Positions 43,218 to 52,396 of a stretch of DNA of 64,000 nucleotides are shown in pieces. This DNA comes from Beijerinckiaceae bacterium (GTDB lineage Bacteria > Pseudomonadota > Alphaproteobacteria > Rhizobiales > Beijerinckiaceae). Position numbers and translations under genes: made by a program. Below the pieces are notes generated by a model. That model did no database searches and was not told the DNA's origin. It saw only the letters and a list, made by a program, of their open reading frames with translations. The stretch is from NCBI GenBank assembly GCA_009773635.1, contig WSYC01000012.1, forward strand, positions 114,030 to 178,029, written 5' to 3'. Each line of letters starts with the position of its first letter. Position 1 is the first letter of the stretch.

Positions 43218-43934
43218 ATGCCGCACTCAGACGTTGCCACCGATCTTTCGCTCGTATCGCTCTTTCTCAACGCCCACTTCATCGTGAAGCTGGTGATGCT
43301 GGGGCTGGCGGGCGCGTCGGTCTGGTCCTGGGCCATCATCATCAACAAGTCGATCATGCTGCGCGCGATGAAAGCGCGGATGGACGAGTTCGAGGACACT
43401 TTCTGGTCCGGCCAGAGCCTCGACGAGCTCTATCGCTCGCTCGCCAACAAGACGACGGACGGGTTCGCGGCGCTGTTCATGGCGGCGATGGGCGAATGGC
43501 GCCGCGCTTTCGAAGGTTCGGGCCGCGGCTTTGCCAGCCTGCAGACCCGCATCGACAAGGTGCTCGATGTCTCAATCAGCCGCGAAGTCGAGCGGCTTGA
43601 ATCCAAGCTGCTGGTGCTCGCGACCATCGCCTCGGTCGGCCCCTACATCGGGCTTTTCGGCACGGTTTTCGGCATCATGACCACTTTCCGCTCGATCGCG
43701 GCGTCGAAGAACACCTCGCTGGCGGTTGTCGCACCCGGCATCGCCGAAGCGCTGTTCGCGACCGCCATCGCGCTGGTGGCGGCGATCCCCGCCAACATTC
43801 TCTACAACAAGTTCGTCAAGGACGTTTCGCGCACGCAAGGCCGCCTCGAAAGCTTCGCGGATGAGTTTTCCGCCATCCTCTCGCGTCAGATCGACGAACG
43901 CGCCGGGCAGGCTGGCCCGCGCAACGTCGCCTGA
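43218..43934 (+). CDS. tolQ: Tol-Pal system protein TolQ
   Basis: S+WSWAII+.K, GPYIGLFGTV.GIM, VAPGIAEAL.ATA; ATG 43218 after GAAGGA. Confidence 0.96.
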   Translation: MPHSDVATDLSLVSLFLNAHFIVKLVMLGLAGASVWSWAIIINKSIMLRAMKARMDEFEDTFWSGQSLDELYRSLANKTTDGFAALFMAAMGEWRRAFEGSGRGFASLQTRIDKVLDVSISREVERLESKLLVLATIASVGPYIGLFGTVFGIMTTFRSIAASKNTSLAVVAPGIAEALFATAIALVAAIPANILYNKFVKDVSRTQGRLESFADEFSAILSRQIDERAGQAGPRNVA

Positions 43935-43946
43935 GGGGTACCGCAC

Positions 43947-44393
43947 ATGGCGATGGCAATGAACGCAGGAGGGGGAAGCGGCAAGCGCCGGCGGGGCAAG
44001 CGCTCGGCGCCGATGGCCGATCTCAACATGATCCCCTTCATCGACGTGATGCTGGTGCTCCTCGTGATCTTCATGGTCGCGGCGCCGTTGCTGACGACCG
44101 GCGTGCCGGTGGACCTGCCAAAAACCGGCGCGAGCCAGCTCAACATCGAGCAGAAGCCACTGGCCGTGACGATCGACGACAAGGGCGTGATCAAGCTGCA
44201 GGAGAAGGAAGTCAGGCTCGAAGCGCTGGCTGCCGAGATTACCGCTATCGCCAAGCAGGGCTTTGACGAGCGCATCTACGTGCGCGGCTCGGCGCAGGTC
44301 GAATACGGCAAGGTCGCAGCGGTGATGGGCGTGCTGCAGAAGGCCGGCTATACCAAAATCGGGCTGATCCACGCGCCCGCGACGACGAAGTAA
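43947..44393 (+). CDS. tolR: Tol-Pal system protein TolR
   Basis: +N+.PFIDVMLVLL+IFMV.AP+...V.VDLP. Confidence 0.95.
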   Translation: MAMAMNAGGGSGKRRRGKRSAPMADLNMIPFIDVMLVLLVIFMVAAPLLTTGVPVDLPKTGASQLNIEQKPLAVTIDDKGVIKLQEKEVRLEALAAEITAIAKQGFDERIYVRGSAQVEYGKVAAVMGVLQKAGYTKIGLIHAPATTK

Positions 44394-44407: not shown

Positions 44408-45571
44408 GTGGCGATCGACCTTCGCGGCACTGTGAAGCGGTTCCTCGACTGGCGTCAGCCGGGGGGCGCGCTGTCGGTCGGGGCGCATACGCTGCTCCTC
44501 GTTGCGAGCGTCTATGCCTTCAATTCCGCGCAGCCGTTCCAGCCGGCGACCGAGGCGCTTGCGGTCGATGTCGTCTCGGAAAAAGATTTCAACGAGATGA
44601 TGAAGGGCGACAAGACCTCGAAAATCATCGCCAAGGAACCCGAGCGCCGCGTCGACCGCGTGGCGGAAATCAAGGATGACAAGGACCCCGGCGTTGAGAA
44701 GAAGGACGTGCCCGTCGCCCCCTCGAAGCAGGAGGCGAAATCCGAGCCCGAACCGAAACTTGCCGCCATCGTGCCGCCGACGCGCCCGCCCGAACTGCGC
44801 GTGACGCCGCCAACGCCCAGCCCGCCGGTGAAGGCCGAGGAAGACGACGAGATCGACGAGAAGGCCGAATTGTTGCGCCGGAAGAAGATCGAGGATCAGA
44901 AAAAGGCCGAGGATGCTGCCAAGGCGGCGGCGGAGGCCAAGCGCAAGCTCGATGAGAAACTGAAGGCGGACGCGCAGGCCAAGGCAGCCGAGGACAAGAA
45001 GAAGCTTGATGATGCCCTGAAAGCCGAGGCGGAGGCTGAAAAACGCGCCGAGGACAAGCGCAAGGCCGACGAGAAGAAGGCGCGCGAAGACAAGGCGAAG
45101 AAGGAACAGGCCGCGAAGGAAGCAGCAGAGGAAAAGGCGCGCAACGACCGCATCCGGAATGTCCTCAATCAATCGAAAGAGCCGGCGGCCTCAACGGGCG
45201 CGACCGGGGCTGCTGTTGCAAGCCGGTCAACGGCGGGGACTGCGACCGCGACAGGAACCAAATTGTCGCCAAGTCAGCTTGGACAGCTCGGTGAGATTCT
45301 CAAAGAACAGATGGAGAGATGCCTCTCCGTTCCGTCGGGCATAAATCCCAAAACAAAGCCGATCGCGCTGATCTATTTCAATAGAGATGGGACACTTTCC
45401 GGTGCTCCGATCTTGCAGAACAGCTCCGCCGAGCCAGCATTTCGAGTTCTCGCAGAGGCCGGTATTCGTGCTCTGCGACAATGTCAGCCTTACAAAGTTC
45501 CTGATCGCTTCATGAGTGCCTTCGAACAGTGGAAGGTCACCACCATCTTCATCTCGCGTCCCGACAATTGA
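44408..45571 (+). CDS. tolA: Tol-Pal system protein TolA
   Basis: N-terminal TM with S...H motif, Lys/Glu/Ala-rich helical domain, C-terminal domain with a C...C pair; position between tolR and tolB. Confidence 0.9.
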   Translation: MAIDLRGTVKRFLDWRQPGGALSVGAHTLLLVASVYAFNSAQPFQPATEALAVDVVSEKDFNEMMKGDKTSKIIAKEPERRVDRVAEIKDDKDPGVEKKDVPVAPSKQEAKSEPEPKLAAIVPPTRPPELRVTPPTPSPPVKAEEDDEIDEKAELLRRKKIEDQKKAEDAAKAAAEAKRKLDEKLKADAQAKAAEDKKKLDDALKAEAEAEKRAEDKRKADEKKAREDKAKKEQAAKEAAEEKARNDRIRNVLNQSKEPAASTGATGAAVASRSTAGTATATGTKLSPSQLGQLGEILKEQMERCLSVPSGINPKTKPIALIYFNRDGTLSGAPILQNSSAEPAFRVLAEAGIRALRQCQPYKVPDRFMSAFEQWKVTTIFISRPDN

Positions 45572-45604: not shown

Positions 45605-46948
45605 ATGAACCGCCCGTTCCAGCTCTTCCGCCCTGTGTTGTTCGCGTTGGGTTTGATCGCCGCGCTGGTTGCGCCGCTCTACATCGCCGGAGAGGCGCAG
45701 GCACAGGCCGGCTGCCGCGCCGGGGAGCTCTGCATCGATCTCAACCCGCGCAATTTCAAGCCGATGCCGATCGCGATTGTCGATTTCGGCGGGGATACGC
45801 AGGGGCCGCAGGTCAGCCAGATCATCGCGGCGAATTTGAAGCGCTCCGGCGTCTTCGAGCCCATCGACCCCGCCCGCCACCCCGAGCGCGGGCTTGGCTT
45901 CGATGCCGTCCCGAATTTTGCCGCCTGGCAACAGGCCGGCGCGCAGGCCATCGTGACCGGCCGCGTGGTGCGTGACGGCGCGCGCATGGCCGTGGAATAT
46001 CGTCTCTGGGATGCGACCGCCGGCAAGCAGATCGTCGGGCAGAAACATGCGATCGACCCCCAGAACTGGCGCCGCCTCGCGCATCTCGCGTCCGATGCGG
46101 TCTACGAGCGCATGACCGGCGAGACCGGTTTTTTTGACACCCGCATCGTCTTTGTCGACGAGACCGGCCCGAAGGAAAAGCGCAAGAAGCGCCTCGCGAT
46201 CATCGATCAGGACGGGGCTAATTTCCGCGCGATCTCATCGGGCAATGAAACCCTGCTGACCCCGCGGTTCTCGCCGCGCGGGGATCGCGTCGCCTTCATG
46301 GCGCTCGATGATTCCGGCCGCGCCAACGTGCAGGTGCTGGACCTCGGCTCGGGCCGGCGCGCGGTGGTCGGCGGCAATGCGACGAGCTTCTCGCCGCGTT
46401 TCGCACCGAACGGGGCGCAGCTCGCGCTCAGCGTCGAGAGCGCGGGCAACACCAATCTGGCGATGGCGGATATTGCGTCGGGCGCCATCCGCCCGCTGAC
46501 CTCCGGCGGCGCGATCGACACCGCGCCATCCTTTTCGCCGGATGGCGGGCAGATCGTGTTCGAGAGCGATCGCGGCGGCGGCCAGCAGATCTACATCATG
46601 GGCGCGGATGGCTCCGGCGCACGACGCATTTCCTTCGGAGAAGGCCGCTATTCAACGCCGGTGTGGTCGCCGAAGGGGGATTACATCGCCTTCACCCGCC
46701 AGAAGGGCAACACCTTCGCCATCGGCATCATGAAGCCGGATGGCTCGGGCGAGCGCATCCTCACCGAAGGGTATCACAACGAAGGCCCGAGCTGGGCGCC
46801 GAACGGGCGCTACATCATGTTCTTTCGCGAAGCGGGCGCAGGGCCGAAGCTGTTCATGGTCGATGTCACCGGGCGTGTTGATGTGCAAATCCCGACGCCG
46901 GCTTTCGCGTCCGATCCGGCGTGGTCGCCACTGCTGTCGGCGAAATGA
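45605..46948 (+). CDS. tolB: Tol-Pal beta-propeller protein TolB
   Basis: PIAI.DF, FDTRI.FV.E.G, repeated P.FS/WSP.G propeller blades. Confidence 0.97.
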   Translation: MNRPFQLFRPVLFALGLIAALVAPLYIAGEAQAQAGCRAGELCIDLNPRNFKPMPIAIVDFGGDTQGPQVSQIIAANLKRSGVFEPIDPARHPERGLGFDAVPNFAAWQQAGAQAIVTGRVVRDGARMAVEYRLWDATAGKQIVGQKHAIDPQNWRRLAHLASDAVYERMTGETGFFDTRIVFVDETGPKEKRKKRLAIIDQDGANFRAISSGNETLLTPRFSPRGDRVAFMALDDSGRANVQVLDLGSGRRAVVGGNATSFSPRFAPNGAQLALSVESAGNTNLAMADIASGAIRPLTSGGAIDTAPSFSPDGGQIVFESDRGGGQQIYIMGADGSGARRISFGEGRYSTPVWSPKGDYIAFTRQKGNTFAIGIMKPDGSGERILTEGYHNEGPSWAPNGRYIMFFREAGAGPKLFMVDVTGRVDVQIPTPAFASDPAWSPLLSAK

Positions 46949-46951
46949 CCC

Positions 46952-47053
46952 CGTGACAAGCGGCATGATCGGGGCTACGGCTGCGGCCAATGCCCGGCCT
47001 GCGAGCTGCGCGCGAACGGTTTTTCGCGGTATCTGGCACTGAGGCAGCGTTGA
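46952..47053 (+). pseudogene. queC: 3'-terminal relic of 7-cyano-7-deazaguanine synthase
   Basis: Translates [33 protein letters not shown], matching the QueC C-terminal Zn motif (H.WGYGCG.CPAC.LR..G). No start codon and the upstream ~200 aa are absent. Confidence 0.8.
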
Positions 47054-47115
47054 AACAGGGTGGCTGATCCCTCAAAGCTCCAAGGCATCGCGCCGGGGCC
47101 AAAGCGAGACAAATC

Positions 47116-47682
47116 ATGACGACAATCGAGAACTTGCGCCGCCGCGAAGGAATTCTGTTCCTCATCGCCTTCACCGCCTGCGTGCCTGCTGCCAACTGGT
47201 TGATCCAGAATGTCGGCACCTTCTGCGTCCCGAACGGTCCCTGCCTCATCCCCGTCGCACCGGGTTTGACTGCCCCAAGCGGTGTGCTGCTGGTCGGTAT
47301 CGCGCTGGTGCTGCGCGATCTCGTGCAGCGGCGGCTGGGGTTGAACTGGGCCTTTGCGGCCATCGCTTTGGGTGGGCTTCTCTCGGCGCTCTTCGCCCCG
47401 CCGGCGCTGGTGGTGGCGTCCGTTGCCGCATTCCTGCTGTCGGAAATCGTCGATCTCATGGTGTTCACGCCGTTGCAGCGGCGCGGGCCGGTGGTGGCTG
47501 CGGTCGTGAGCAGCCTTGTCGGGCTCGTAGTCGACAGCATCGTGTTTCTCTGGCTGGCCTTCGGCGGGCTTGAGTTTCTCACCGGGCAGATCGTCGGCAA
47601 GGCGCTGATGGTGCTGATCGCCATCCCCGTTCTCGCCTGGATCCGCACGCGCGATGCAAGGCTGGGGATTGCACCAGCTTGA
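47116..47682 (+). CDS. VUT family (YhhQ-like) queuosine-precursor transporter
   Basis: G..LVLRD.VQ..LG, AS..AFL.SE..D..VF..L, S..VG..VDS..FL.LAFG; multi-TM. Confidence 0.82.
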   Translation: MTTIENLRRREGILFLIAFTACVPAANWLIQNVGTFCVPNGPCLIPVAPGLTAPSGVLLVGIALVLRDLVQRRLGLNWAFAAIALGGLLSALFAPPALVVASVAAFLLSEIVDLMVFTPLQRRGPVVAAVVSSLVGLVVDSIVFLWLAFGGLEFLTGQIVGKALMVLIAIPVLAWIRTRDARLGIAPA

Positions 47683-47892
47683 GTCGACGACCGGAATTCA
47701 ACGAAATTTCAAGACTTTGTTCACCATTCGCCGCAAAGTCGCCACGCATGGCGCCTCTATTGGGCGTTGAACATGCTTGACGGAAGCTTTCGTTAATCCA
47801 ACGGAATTTAAGAAATTCTCAAGGGGCGAGTTCAACAACACCGGATCCATCCGGGGTTGCATGACGTTCGTTCATTCGAAGGAGTATCTGGG

Positions 47893-48387
47893 ATGGTTCC
47901 CGCATTTTTCACCGCGCGCGTCTCGCGCTTCGCCGCCATCATGCTGGTTGCCGGGCTTCTGAGCGCCTGCGCTTCCAAGACCGATCCGAATGTTGATGGC
48001 GCCGGAGGGCCCAACACGCCGGGATCGATCCAGGATTTCGTCGTCAACGTCGGTGACCGCGTGTTCTTCGATTCCGATTCCTCGGAAATCAACAGCGCCG
48101 GGCAGGCAACGCTCGACAAGCAGGCGCAGTGGCTCAACCAGTATCCGCGCTATTCCTTCACGATCGAAGGCCATGCGGACGAGCGCGGCACGCGCGAATA
48201 CAACTTCGCGCTGGGTGCGCGCCGCTCCGAATCGGCCAAGAACTATCTGATCGCACGCGGCGTCGGGGCCAATCGCATCCGCACGACGTCGTTTGGCAAG
48301 GAGCGCCCGGTCGCGGTCTGCAATGACATCTCGTGCTGGTCGCAGAACCGGCGTGCGGTGACGGTGCTCGGCGGGGCCGGGGGCTGA
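47893..48387 (+). CDS. pal: Peptidoglycan-associated lipoprotein
   Basis: Lipobox LSAC, VGDRVFF..DS, EGHADERGTREYN.ALG.RR, QNRRA. Confidence 0.97.
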   Translation: MVPAFFTARVSRFAAIMLVAGLLSACASKTDPNVDGAGGPNTPGSIQDFVVNVGDRVFFDSDSSEINSAGQATLDKQAQWLNQYPRYSFTIEGHADERGTREYNFALGARRSESAKNYLIARGVGANRIRTTSFGKERPVAVCNDISCWSQNRRAVTVLGGAGG

Positions 48388-48462
48388 TCTTCAACCCTTG
48401 GCGATAACCCTCGTGCTACAAGATGCTTTATTCCCCTTCCCGGGGTCTGCTAGACTGAAGAC

Positions 48463-49386
48463 ATGGTCAGGATGATCCGCTTCTCTCGTGCTGCATTCAC
48501 GCTCATCGCCCTTTTCGTTGGGGCGATGCAGTGTGTCACGATCGCCCGTGCGCAGGATGCTGCGGATTTCATCCTCCGGCTCGACCGGCTGGAGGCGGAA
48601 AACCGTCGCCTCACCGGGCAGGTCGATGAGTTGAAATTTCAGCTCAGACGGCTTGAAGATCAAATCAAGCGCTTCCAGACCGATTCGGATACGCGCTTCC
48701 GCGATCTCGAAGGCAATCGGGGCGGCATCCGGCCTGCCCCCAATGCCGGCCAGCCCGTACCGGGTCCGGTCACGCCGCAGAAGCGGTCCGATGCGTTCGA
48801 TCCTGCCACGTCAAATACAGCGCCCGGCGCACCCCGCCCGCTCGGTTCGACCGGCGTCGCCACGCCGCCCGGCGCTCCTCTGTCGGCCGGCACCCTGCCG
48901 CCCGGTGGTCGGCTGGTACAGGATGGTGAACTCGGCGCGCCGCTCGATGTTTCCGGCCAGCGGCGCCCGCCTGTCCCGCCGCCGGTGACGGATATGCCAC
49001 GCGGCGATGCCAAATCGGACTTTGATTTCGCCAAATCCCTCGTCGATCGCGGCGATTACGAACTCGCGGAAGGGGCTTTCAAGGATTACATGCGCACCTA
49101 CCCGAAGGACCGGCGCGTCCCCGATGCCACGTTCTGGCTCGGCGAGAGCTATCTGCGGCGCACGCGCTACCGCGAAGCTGCAGAACATTTCCTGACGGTC
49201 ACCAGCAAATATTCCAATGTGCCCAGAGCCCCGGAGGCGATGCTCAAGCTCGGCATTTCCCTGCGCGGTCTTGGCGCGATCCAGGAAGCCTGCGGCACCT
49301 TCGCGCAGGTCGGCAAGAAATATCCCAATGCATCGGCTGCCATCAAGCAGGCGGTCGAGCGCGAGAGGGGCCGGGCACAGTGCTAG
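48463..49386 (+). CDS. cpoB: Tol-Pal protein YbgF/CpoB
   Basis: Signal peptide, coiled coil, TPR domain with A.FWLGESY and APEAMLKLG.SL. Confidence 0.93.
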   Translation: MVRMIRFSRAAFTLIALFVGAMQCVTIARAQDAADFILRLDRLEAENRRLTGQVDELKFQLRRLEDQIKRFQTDSDTRFRDLEGNRGGIRPAPNAGQPVPGPVTPQKRSDAFDPATSNTAPGAPRPLGSTGVATPPGAPLSAGTLPPGGRLVQDGELGAPLDVSGQRRPPVPPPVTDMPRGDAKSDFDFAKSLVDRGDYELAEGAFKDYMRTYPKDRRVPDATFWLGESYLRRTRYREAAEHFLTVTSKYSNVPRAPEAMLKLGISLRGLGAIQEACGTFAQVGKKYPNASAAIKQAVERERGRAQC

Positions 49387-50332
49387 ACGACGAGGACAGC
49401 GGCCTGATCGACCAGCTTCCTCTGACAGCGGAAGAGGCTCTGGCGCTGCTGCGTGGCGCGCTGGGCAGCGACGATTGCTCCGGCATCCTGCTGTGTGTTT
49501 CCGGTGGCCCTGATTCGATGGCCATGCTCGGGCTGTGTGCGGCGGCGCGCGCCTATCTTCCTCCCCTCGCGGTCGCTACCGTCGACCACGGTTTGCGGGC
49601 CGAATCGAAGGATGAAGCGGCATTCGTCGCGGATTTCTGCCGCGAGCTCGAACTGCCGCATTGCACGCTTATCTGGACCGACGGGCCTTCCGGCGCGGTC
49701 AATCAGGAAACAGCCCGCAAGGGGCGCTACGCGCTGCTCCTGAGATCGAGCGCGGCCCGATGCGGCATATCCGGCCGTTTCTGGAAGTGCCCAAGACCCG
49801 CCTCGTCAGCACCTGCACCCAGAACAACTGGCTCTACGCACGGGACCCCTCCAATCAGGACCCGCGCTTTACCCGCACCCGCATGCGGGCGCTGATGCCA
49901 ATTCTCGCCGGCGAAGGGCTGACAAACGAGCGGCTTGGAACACTCGCCGCGCGCGCCCGCCGCTCCGAAGATGCCCTCGATCATGTGGCGCGGCGCTCCG
50001 TGGAAAGCGCGATCATCCGCCGCGCGCCGGACGGCGGCGCGATCCGGCTGAAGGCCGACCCGTTCTATACCGAGCCTTTCGATCTCGCACTTCGGATGCT
50101 CCGGCGCTCGATGCTGGCGATCGGCGGCGAAAATGATCGGGAACTGCAGATCTCTTTGGCCAAGCTCGAACGCCTGCTCAAGAACCTGCGGATGGCGATC
50201 CGGGATCAGCGGCCGTTCCGCCAGTCGCTGGCCTGGACGGTGATCGCTCATGGCGGCGGGTATCTCGAGGTGCGCACAGCGCCTCCACGCCGCAGCACCA
50301 AAGGCACTGAACGCGCCGCCGGAAAGCGCTGA
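49380..50332 (+). pseudogene. tilS: tRNA(Ile)-lysidine synthetase with internal deletion and frameshift at about 49740
   Basis: Frame 1 carries VSGGPDSMAM, VDHGLR and ARKGRYALL. The sequence then shifts frame into IRPFL.VPK.RL and DPSN.DPRF.R.R.R. The H..DDQAET/RGSG segment between them is absent. Confidence 0.85.
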
Positions 50333-50376
50333 ATGCGATGAAATTAACCGGCAGGACGCGAAAAGATTTCGCGCTT

Positions 50377-50405
50377 CTTGGCAATTGGTTCTGCCACGCC
50401 TAAAT
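50377..50405 (+). promoter_or_regulatory. RpoH (sigma32)-type promoter of ftsH
   Basis: CTTGGC-16 nt-CCTAAAT, resembling CTTGAA-N16-CCTATAT. Confidence 0.5.
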
Positions 50406-50473
50406 ACTCTTCCAGATACGGGCGTTTTCCGGCCTCTGCCGGAAGCCCAAGGAACCGGTGAGACGCCCCCTCC

Positions 50474-52396
50474 ATGAACCCGAATTTCCGCAATATTGCC
50501 CTTTGGGCCATCATTCTCCTGCTGGTTCTCGCGCTGGTGTCGGTTTTCCAGAGCCCGTCCACGCGATCCGCCGGGCATGAAATCCCCTATTCCGCGTTCG
50601 TCGACAGCGTGGAAAAGGGCAAGGTTGAACGCATCATCACGTCCGGCTACGACATTCAGGGCGCCTTCAACGATGGTTCCGGCACTTTCCAGAGCTACGG
50701 GCCAGTGGACGAGAAGCTGCGGGAGAAGATGCGGGACAAGGGCGTGAACGTCTCCTACCGCTCCCCGAACGCGGACACCCCGTGGTACATGTCGCTGATC
50801 ATGAACTGGCTGCCGCTGGTGTTTTTCCTCGGCGTGTGGATCTTCATGTCGCGCCAGATGCAGAACGGTGCCGGCCGCGCGATGGGTTTTGGCAAATCGA
50901 AGGCCAAGCTGCTGACCGAAGCCCACGGCCGCGTGACCTTCGAGGATGTTGCGGGCATCGATGAAGCCAAGGAAGACCTGCAGGAAATCGTCGAATTCCT
51001 GCGCGACCCGCAGAAATTCCAACGCCTTGGCGGGCGCATTCCGCGCGGCGTGCTGCTGGTTGGTCCGCCGGGCACGGGTAAAACCCTCACCGCGCGTGCG
51101 GTTGCCGGCGAAGCCAATGTGCCGTTCTTCACGATTTCCGGCTCGGACTTCGTGGAAATGTTCGTCGGCGTCGGCGCGTCCCGCGTTCGCGACATGTTTG
51201 CGGAAGCGAAAAAGAATGCACCCTGCATCATCTTCATCGATGAAATCGACGCCGTCGGCCGCCATCGCGGTGCTGGCCTCGGCGGCGGCAACGACGAGCG
51301 CGAGCAGACGCTGAACCAACTCCTCGTCGAGATGGACGGCTTCGAGGCCAACGAGGGCGTGATCATCATCGCCGCGACCAATCGCCCCGACGTTCTCGAT
51401 CCGGCGCTGCTGCGTCCGGGTCGTTTCGACCGCCAGATCGTGGTGCCTCTGCCGGATGTCAACGGCCGCGAGCGCATCCTGCGCGTCCATTGCCGCAAGG
51501 TGCCGATGGCACCGGACGTCAACCTGAAAACGCTTGCCCGCGGCACGCCCGGCTTTTCGGGCGCGGACCTGATGAACCTCGTCAACGAAGCGGCATTGCT
51601 CGCCGCGCGCCGCAGCCGCCGCCTCGTCACGCACCTCGAGTTCGAGGACGCGAAGGACAAGGTGATGATGGGTGCTGAACGCAAATCCATGGCGATGTCT
51701 GCCGAGGAAAAGAAGAATACAGCCTACCACGAGGCCGGCCACGCGATCATCGCGCTCAAGGTGGCGGGCATCGACCCGATCCACAAGGCAACGATCATCC
51801 CGCGCGGCCGGGCACTCGGCATGGTGATGACCCTGCCGGAGAGCGACCGCTACTCGATGTCGCGCGAGAAGAGCCTCGCCCGGCTGGTGATGCTGTTTGG
51901 TGGCCGCGAGGCCGAAATCATCACCTTCGGGCCGGAAAAGGTCACCAACGGTGCGACCGGCGACATCCAGATGGCGACCGGCCTTGCGCGCGCCATGGTG
52001 ATGGAATGGGGCATGAGCGAGCGGCTTGGCCGCGTGCGCTATGCCTCGAACCAGCAGGAAGTGTTCCTCGGGCATTCGGTATCGCAGACCACCAACATGT
52101 CCGATGAAACCGCCAAGCTGATCGACGAGGAAGTCCGCAAGTTGATCGAGGAAGGCGAAACCGCCGCCCGCAAGATCATCACCGAGAACAAGGATCAGTT
52201 TGTCGCGATCGCCGAAGCCCTGCTCGAGTTCGAGACGCTGACCGGCGATGAACTCCGCGCTCTCATGGACGGCAAGCGTCCGACGCGTGAAGACCCGGAC
52301 GAACCGGCCACGCCGCGCGGTTCCGCCGTGCCGACCTCCGGCAAACCGCGTCCGCCCGAAGCCGAAGGCGGCATGGAGCCGCAGCCGCAAGGTTAA
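50474..52396 (+). CDS. ftsH: ATP-dependent zinc metalloprotease FtsH
   Basis: Two TMs, [17 protein letters not shown], second region of homology, HEAGH. Confidence 0.99.

Follow-up and report, generated by a model that had tools for sequence, protein, structure and literature searches.

A recent, lineage-specific deletion in tolB-linked queC beside an intact VUT transporter gene and a conserved leader motif in a groundwater alphaproteobacterium

The window, by which we mean the whole 64,000-nt stretch of DNA that was analysed, contains a tol-pal region in the gene order tolQ-tolR-tolA-tolB-pal-cpoB. The matching Pfam domains occur in the expected order (MotA_ExbB, ExbD, TolB_N/PD40, OmpA and TolA_bind_tri/TPR). 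Between tolB and pal lie a fragment of queC, a conserved leader motif and a complete VUT-family gene. The features of the locus are as follows.

43218-43934, plus strand: tolQ, a called gene with the Pfam MotA_ExbB/ExbD set on the identical contig L083, mapped to the window
43947-44393, plus strand: tolR, a called gene with its Pfam family on L083, mapped to the window
44408-45571, plus strand: tolA-like gene, called on the identical contig L083 and mapped to the window
45605-46948, plus strand: tolB, 447 aa, with a TGA stop at 46946-46948 (Pfam TolB_N, E 1e-24; PD40, E 3.5e-25)
46946-46951, no strand: deletion junction, placed by blastn against L081 and run contigs and by comparison by eye
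46952-47053, plus strand: queC remnant, codons 205-237 and stop (Pfam/NCBIfam QueC, tblastn, alignment to 3BL5)
47054-47115, plus strand: conserved leader RNA motif (alignment of 14 sequences, covariance model, minimum-free-energy folds)
47116-47682, plus strand: VUT/QPTR (YhhQ/COG1738 family) membrane protein, 188 aa (Pfam Vut_1)
47893-48387, plus strand: pal, OmpA-family lipoprotein (Pfam OmpA)
48463-49386, plus strand: cpoB/ybgF (TolA_bind_tri and TPR families; called genes on L083 and L081)

The window TolB is 82-92% identical to TolB of its relatives. The insertion of queC and VUT between tolB and pal is found in this clade only, a family-level group of uncultured Hyphomicrobiales (Beijerinckiaceae/Rhabdaerophilum-like) with the gene order tolQ-tolR-tolA-tolB-queC-leader RNA-VUT-pal-cpoB. 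In the relatives, queC starts 0-20 nt past the tolB stop. A promoter and terminator scan from tolB to pal detected neither a promoter-like site nor a terminator in the tolB-VUT interval of the window, suggesting that VUT is probably transcribed from the tol promoter. Both queC and VUT of the relatives are probably read from the tol transcript as well.

After the tolB stop codon, the tolB frame continues for 34 sense codons and ends at a stop at 47051-47053. The remnant proper comprises 33 of these codons and the stop, and corresponds to the 3' end of queC. Its peptide matched Pfam QueC PF06508 at positions 188-209 of 210 (E 6.3e-5; 23 bits, cutoff 22) and NCBIfam QueC PRK11106 at positions 193-217 of 231 (E 6e-6), both matches being confined to the C-terminus of the profile. 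A relative with a full-length QueC is represented by L081, a 5.1-kb sludge metatranscriptome contig that was found through the closest VUT homologue (96% identical). By tblastn, 32 of the 33 remnant residues (97%) are identical to residues 205-237 of the L081 QueC, and the DNA is identical at 97 of 99 nt, with two differences. As a sequence match, this identity is far beyond chance. An earlier note on this DNA, made from the letters alone, had read the stretch as a C-terminal queC relic directly after the tolB stop, followed 62 nt later by a complete VUT/YhhQ-like gene. The profile matches and the L081 alignment bear out the coordinates and the sequence of the relic, and the VUT gene is complete and stands where the note had placed it.

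Only part of the QueC zinc site is left. The remnant keeps three of the four Zn-ligand cysteines, all in CGQCPAC; the first zinc cysteine, in HSCY in L081, falls inside the deleted part. Also absent are the catalytic core and the SGGQDS PP-loop, which occupies residues 13-18 of the L081 QueC when aligned to PDB 3BL5. No start codon occurs between the tolB stop and the remnant, and we found no open reading frame there with a start codon and a four-cysteine zinc site. Because it lacks a start codon, the PP-loop and the core, the remnant cannot encode the enzyme. These comparisons indicate that the DNA is of QueC origin and is now a pseudogene fragment.

We compared the window with L081, which is 96.5% identical at the nucleotide level (blastn) and carries tolB, a full 237-aa queC, VUT, pal, cpoB, tilS and ftsH in that order. 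The alignment stops at the tolB stop and resumes at queC codon 205. Between 46946 and 46950, 616 bases of L081 are replaced by the three bases GAC (46947-46949), a net loss of 613 bp. These three bases can be assigned to neither flank of the deletion, and the tolB stop is TGA in the window and TAA in L081. The tolB-queC spacer and queC codons 1-204 have been deleted, with the start codon, the ATP-binding PP-loop, the core and the first zinc cysteine; the tolB stop, the 33 terminal queC codons, the leader and VUT have been kept. The deletion ends about 100 nt upstream of the leader motif, which is untouched. ATCTC occurs near both ends of the deleted segment in L081, and recombination between these repeats was rejected as the origin of the deletion, since it would not give the junction seen in the window, AAAT-GAC-CCCGTGAC. 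In the window lineage, the alignment shows one deletion event, which removed 613 bp net.

The same comparison dates the event. Because the remnant differs at only 2 of 99 nt from the intact gene of a relative that is 96.5% identical, the loss of queC is recent by this sequence measure. The earlier note had also called the loss recent, on the ground that the relic has no internal stops; the comparison with L081 supports the claim, although its original argument is weak for 33 GC-rich codons.

We then asked whether the junction recurs outside the window. The exact 45-nt junction string was present in five other assemblies, three from ENA and two Logan run assemblies, on contigs up to 75 kb long. 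In the groundwater runs X1 and X2, contigs span the junction without differences at depths of 7 and 8.6, and their contigs contain no competing allele at the junction. The sludge runs X5 and X6 carry the 616-base insert; the joint of X5 on the window skips 3 letters, with 616 letters between. Given the identical junction in five assemblies and the lack of an alternative allele in two groundwater runs, misassembly, which the earlier note had named as something that would overturn its reading, does not account for the junction. In the groundwater populations sampled, no allele other than the deletion was seen. Rare variants are lost from contigs, and fixation is thus shown at the level of contigs only.

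The window has a second gap of its own. At 49744/49745, 127 bp are absent from tilS, which is split into open reading frames at 49380-49895 and 49661-50332. The 127 bp are present in L081, L083 and L085 and in contigs of runs X1-X3. The gap frameshifts the essential tilS gene, and two other assemblies break their contigs at this place. The tilS gap, contradicted by every other assembly, most likely arose as an artefact when the window was assembled.

Genes that adjoin one another across many genomes give a view of the state before the deletion. A scan of a genome collection with VUT yielded 80 alphaproteobacterial loci, of which 66 have queC directly upstream of VUT. In 56 of these 66 linked loci, the two genes overlap or are at most 24 nt apart, and most overlap. 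The arrangement tolB-queC-VUT-pal is confined to the Beijerinckiaceae/Rhabdaerophilum-like group, represented by nine loci of the scan together with L081, L094, L107, L115 and L144-L148. It is the normal arrangement of the clade, and a full queC is present in all of the other members (L081 and 17 of 17 other relatives). Since every other group member has a full queC, the deletion is unique to the window lineage. Judged from this linkage, VUT is the ancestral partner of queC, and the organism had both arms beforehand. The event is thus the loss of the synthesis arm from an ancestral pair, with no new pairing.

A further set of loci in the scan, from Ferrovibrio and its relatives (L046, L050, L062, L067, L070, L075, L077 and L080), has no queC ahead of VUT. 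At these loci a divergent QueC-like gene (28-32% identity) adjoins VUT; it is on the opposite strand at all of them except L062. Most of the loci have a conserved promoter-like stretch, TTGC...CCGTATAT/C, upstream of VUT.

The retained VUT protein belongs to Pfam Vut_1 (PF02592), scoring 41.5 bits against a gathering score of 27.2 (E 2.2e-10). It falls below the equivalog cutoffs of NCBIfam TIGR00697, "queuosine precursor transporter" (43.4 against 50.95 bits), and of PRK11212 (24.2 against 252 bits). Homologues of the 188-aa protein number in the thousands, and their NCBI label is only "VUT family protein". The gene is associated with queuosine genes in the genome, queC standing upstream of it at the 66 linked loci. 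On the basis of family membership and very strong linkage to queC, VUT is a putative preQ0/preQ1 importer.

The spacer from the queC stop to the VUT ATG is exactly 62 nt long (47054-47115). The earlier note had this length right but did not mention that the spacer holds a conserved RNA leader. Conservation of the spacer greatly exceeds that of the surrounding coding DNA. We aligned 14 distinct leader sequences from taxa whose VUT proteins are 4-28% different and found invariant or near-invariant blocks in the order ACAGGG-UGGCUGAU-CCCU-NAAAGCCC-variable part-GGGCCAAAGCGAG-N5-8-AUG. In the window, stem P1 is formed by AGGG (47057-47060) and CCCU (47069-47072), which enclose the invariant loop UGGCUGAU (47061-47068), with CAAA as the linker. 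The variable hairpin P2 runs from GCUCC (47077-47081) to GGGGC (47095-47099), and the invariant CAAAGCGAG at 47100-47108 stands right ahead of the VUT ATG. The variable part, a hairpin that measures 3 to 17 nt, folds in 11 of 11 sequences tested by minimum free energy, and its inner stem is different in almost every taxon. A CAAAGC block is duplicated in the leader, and its second copy abuts the ribosome-binding region.

This motif appears to be narrowly distributed. A covariance model built from it (R1) gave a single match at each locus (67-82 bits), in every case just upstream of VUT and restricted to the tolB clade. The window match covers 47049-47118, and there was nothing comparable elsewhere in 724 kb. 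When metagenome contigs were scanned with the pattern TGGCTGAT-N5-AAAGC-N4-34-CCAAAGCG, three of 53 matches were true (L094, L107 and L115), which indicates that the motif is confined to a narrow clade. The remaining matches were rejected as chance, including a repeated gut-metagenome element. This element, an unrelated and near-identical imperfect palindrome, CGCTTTGGCTGATCGGCAAAAGCCGATCCGCCAAAGCG, occurs in L091, L096, L097, L102, L103 and about 20 more human-gut loci.

Searches against Rfam gave no relevant match, including to preQ1-I, -II and -III, for either the interval 46500-48000 or the 86 nt at 47040-47125, at E up to 10. The leader likewise does not match the preQ1-I covariance model (RF00522), and our literature search found no paper on an alphaproteobacterial preQ1 riboswitch linked to queC. 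Covariation amounts to one compensatory AU-to-GC change in P1, in L004, and none in the outer P2, which is no better than in shuffles (111/500), and the thermodynamic stability of the leader is unremarkable (z 0.66). Two other roles were considered and set aside. The insert lengths are not multiples of three and every frame contains stops or shifts, which excludes a coding element; the variable spacing argues against a promoter or operator.

A pseudoknot can nevertheless be drawn between GGCU (47062-47065) and AGCC (47076-47079), where all bases are invariant, so that no covariation signal is possible. The GGCU loop is pairable with either copy of CAAAGC, and it would pair alternately with one of the two blocks, the second of which lies beside the ribosome-binding site. 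The base before the 3' strand of P1 (CCCU) is U and not the specificity C of preQ1-I. The leader is a candidate cis-regulatory RNA, possibly a riboswitch, and the motif probably governs the translation of VUT. The more specific proposal, which we put forward tentatively and with considerable doubt, is that this leader of 60-80 nt could be a new riboswitch class that senses a 7-deazapurine (preQ1/preQ0) and controls VUT translation within the tol-pal operon. If it is a riboswitch, the queC deletion would have left a ligand-controlled importer as the sole source of preQ0. If it senses a 7-deazapurine, preQ1-type control of yhhQ-family genes would extend from Gammaproteobacteria to Alphaproteobacteria, with a different RNA.

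Together, these comparisons show that a recent, lineage-specific deletion destroyed the tolB-linked queC and left the ancestral transporter gene and its leader intact. The locus would no longer supply QueC. Without QueC from this locus, the cell cannot turn CDG (7-carboxy-7-deazaguanine) into preQ0, unless another copy exists. Its preQ0/preQ1 would most likely be obtained from the community via the retained transporter. The account that we favour, with moderate confidence, is that the deletion shifted the organism from de novo synthesis plus salvage to salvage only. Dependence on salvage and cross-feeding is a reasonable inference and not a finding. The earlier note had described the locus as caught in a switch from synthesis to salvage. 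The loss of the queC arm beside an intact VUT agrees with this description; the notion of replacement falls away, VUT being an ancestral partner of queC (66/80).

A different outcome would be that the whole queuosine pathway is being abandoned and that VUT is intact only because it has had too little time to decay. Queuosine has been lost repeatedly in bacteria (PMC11570991), and the deletion is very recent. When the changes in VUT were polarised with eight outgroups, derived changes at first and second codon positions numbered nine in the window lineage against three in L081; at third positions the counts were 10 and 13. One residue stands out: P125 (L125P, codon at 47488-47490) is found in none of 120 homologues, 87.5% of which have leucine. 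It is the sole unusual residue of an otherwise consensus-like VUT. The skew hints at some relaxation or adaptation after the loss of queC, but a relative-rate test for relaxed selection was not significant (one-sided p 0.077; range 0.077-0.15). Against abandonment, VUT has the consensus residue at 90 of the 90 positions with a conservation of at least 90% across the 120 homologues, it has no frameshift or stop, its overall dN/dS against L081 is 0.08, and the leader motif is unchanged. On balance, we consider abandonment of the pathway unlikely.

The loss would be redundant if the genome encoded, away from this locus, a further functional queC or some other means of making preQ0. queC is normally a single-copy gene. 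The tolB-linked copy is universally conserved in the clade, as expected of the working copy, and a tblastn search with QueC found no other queC-like sequence in the window (next-best E 0.69). About 80 kb around the locus, examined with Pfam lists and tblastn with QueC, contained no second queC, none of queD, queE, queF, tgt and queA, and no other que gene; these 80 kb are the extent of the que-gene search and argue neither way on a second queC. Redundancy thus strikes us as improbable.

The remnant could also have been kept for a function of its own: it might extend TolB by read-through, encode a small cysteine-rich peptide or provide 5' sequence that VUT needs for its expression. Its frame continues that of tolB across a single TGA and then C, as had been noted from the letters, and it differs from L081 at 2 of 99 nt, compared with 6-9% in the flanking blocks. 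The frame follows from the size of the net loss (613 = 3x204+1), however, and the chance of an in-frame placement is one in three. The low divergence also takes in the first 120 nt of VUT, in keeping with a mosaic like that left by recombination. Over 46745-51130, divergence between the window and L081 is indeed mosaic: the tolB 3' end and most of VUT have a synonymous divergence of about 0.3, whereas the queC stub, like pal, cpoB and ftsH, stands at 0.025-0.1. Between neighbouring genes, dS spans 0.025-0.31. This pattern suggests homologous recombination between related lineages. Moreover, the remnant has neither a start codon of its own nor a promoter-like site, and the conserved part of the leader begins only at the queC stop codon. 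A retained function is therefore very improbable. Finally, that the queC deletion is itself an assembly artefact can be dismissed almost entirely: the window does have one unsupported deletion already, the 127 bp in tilS at 49744/49745, but the queC junction is identical across five assemblies from different assemblers and k-mer sizes, and in two runs it is crossed by Logan contigs that show neither a mismatch nor a competing form.

A salvage-only organism, our preferred reading, would fit a wider pattern. Queuosine precursors are shared goods in microbial communities, and losing their synthesis while keeping an importer is a recognised way of becoming metabolically dependent. Most of the published losses are old and come from host-associated bacteria; here, the loss is one fresh deletion in a free-living groundwater lineage. 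The deletion lineage and its intact sister form a natural near-isogenic pair for the cost and benefit of losing queC.

The alignment of the complete L081 QueC with B. subtilis QueC (PDB 3BL5; E 6e-69) runs from one end of the protein to the other, and the remnant corresponds to the C-terminal CGxCxxCxLR zinc-binding segment. Unlike B. subtilis QueC, the window keeps the last 33 residues only.

The retained transporter can be set beside E. coli YhhQ. YhhQ/QPTR imports preQ0 and preQ1, and in E. coli it coexists with de novo synthesis (PMC5372724). The window VUT shares with it the Vut_1 family, linkage to queuosine genes and ancestral coexistence with de novo synthesis. E. coli YhhQ has 221 aa and the window VUT 188 aa; VUT lies below the YhhQ equivalog cutoffs, and its substrate is putative.

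The leader invites comparison with the preQ1-I type III riboswitch, which lies upstream of yhhQ in Gammaproteobacteria (PMC10622847, PMC11625349). The preQ1-I fold is an H-type pseudoknot with an A-rich L3 and a specificity cytosine just 5' of the 3' strand of P1 (PMC11625349). Like the type III riboswitch, the leader is a small conserved RNA upstream of a yhhQ-family gene that ends by the ribosome-binding region, and a compact H-type pseudoknot can be drawn in it, with P1 (AGGG/CCCU), a pairing of GGCU with AGCC or AGC, and an A-rich linker. Unlike preQ1-I, the leader matches no Rfam preQ1 model, has U in place of the specificity C and a loop that is not pyrimidine-rich, and contains a variable hairpin and a duplicated CAAAGC block. 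The type III riboswitch is a 5' leader, whereas the window motif lies inside an operon, after queC.

Bacteria have repeatedly lost synthesis genes and kept QPTR and tgt, for example Bartonella (PMC11570991), which belongs to the same order as the window organism, Hyphomicrobiales. As in the known cases of synthesis loss and QPTR salvage (PMC5372724, PMC11570991), a gene for preQ0 synthesis is gone, a COG1738/PF02592 transporter is kept, and the ancestor of the window lineage had both routes. Unlike host-associated Bartonella, the window organism is a free-living groundwater bacterium; for its other que genes, the comparison covers about 80 kb around the locus. The Bartonella-type cases also differ in that, at this locus, a single fresh deletion has left a 3' stub in place and an intact sister lineage exists at 96.5% identity. 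Gene loss of this kind is already known, and the window lineage adds a fresh and well-documented case.
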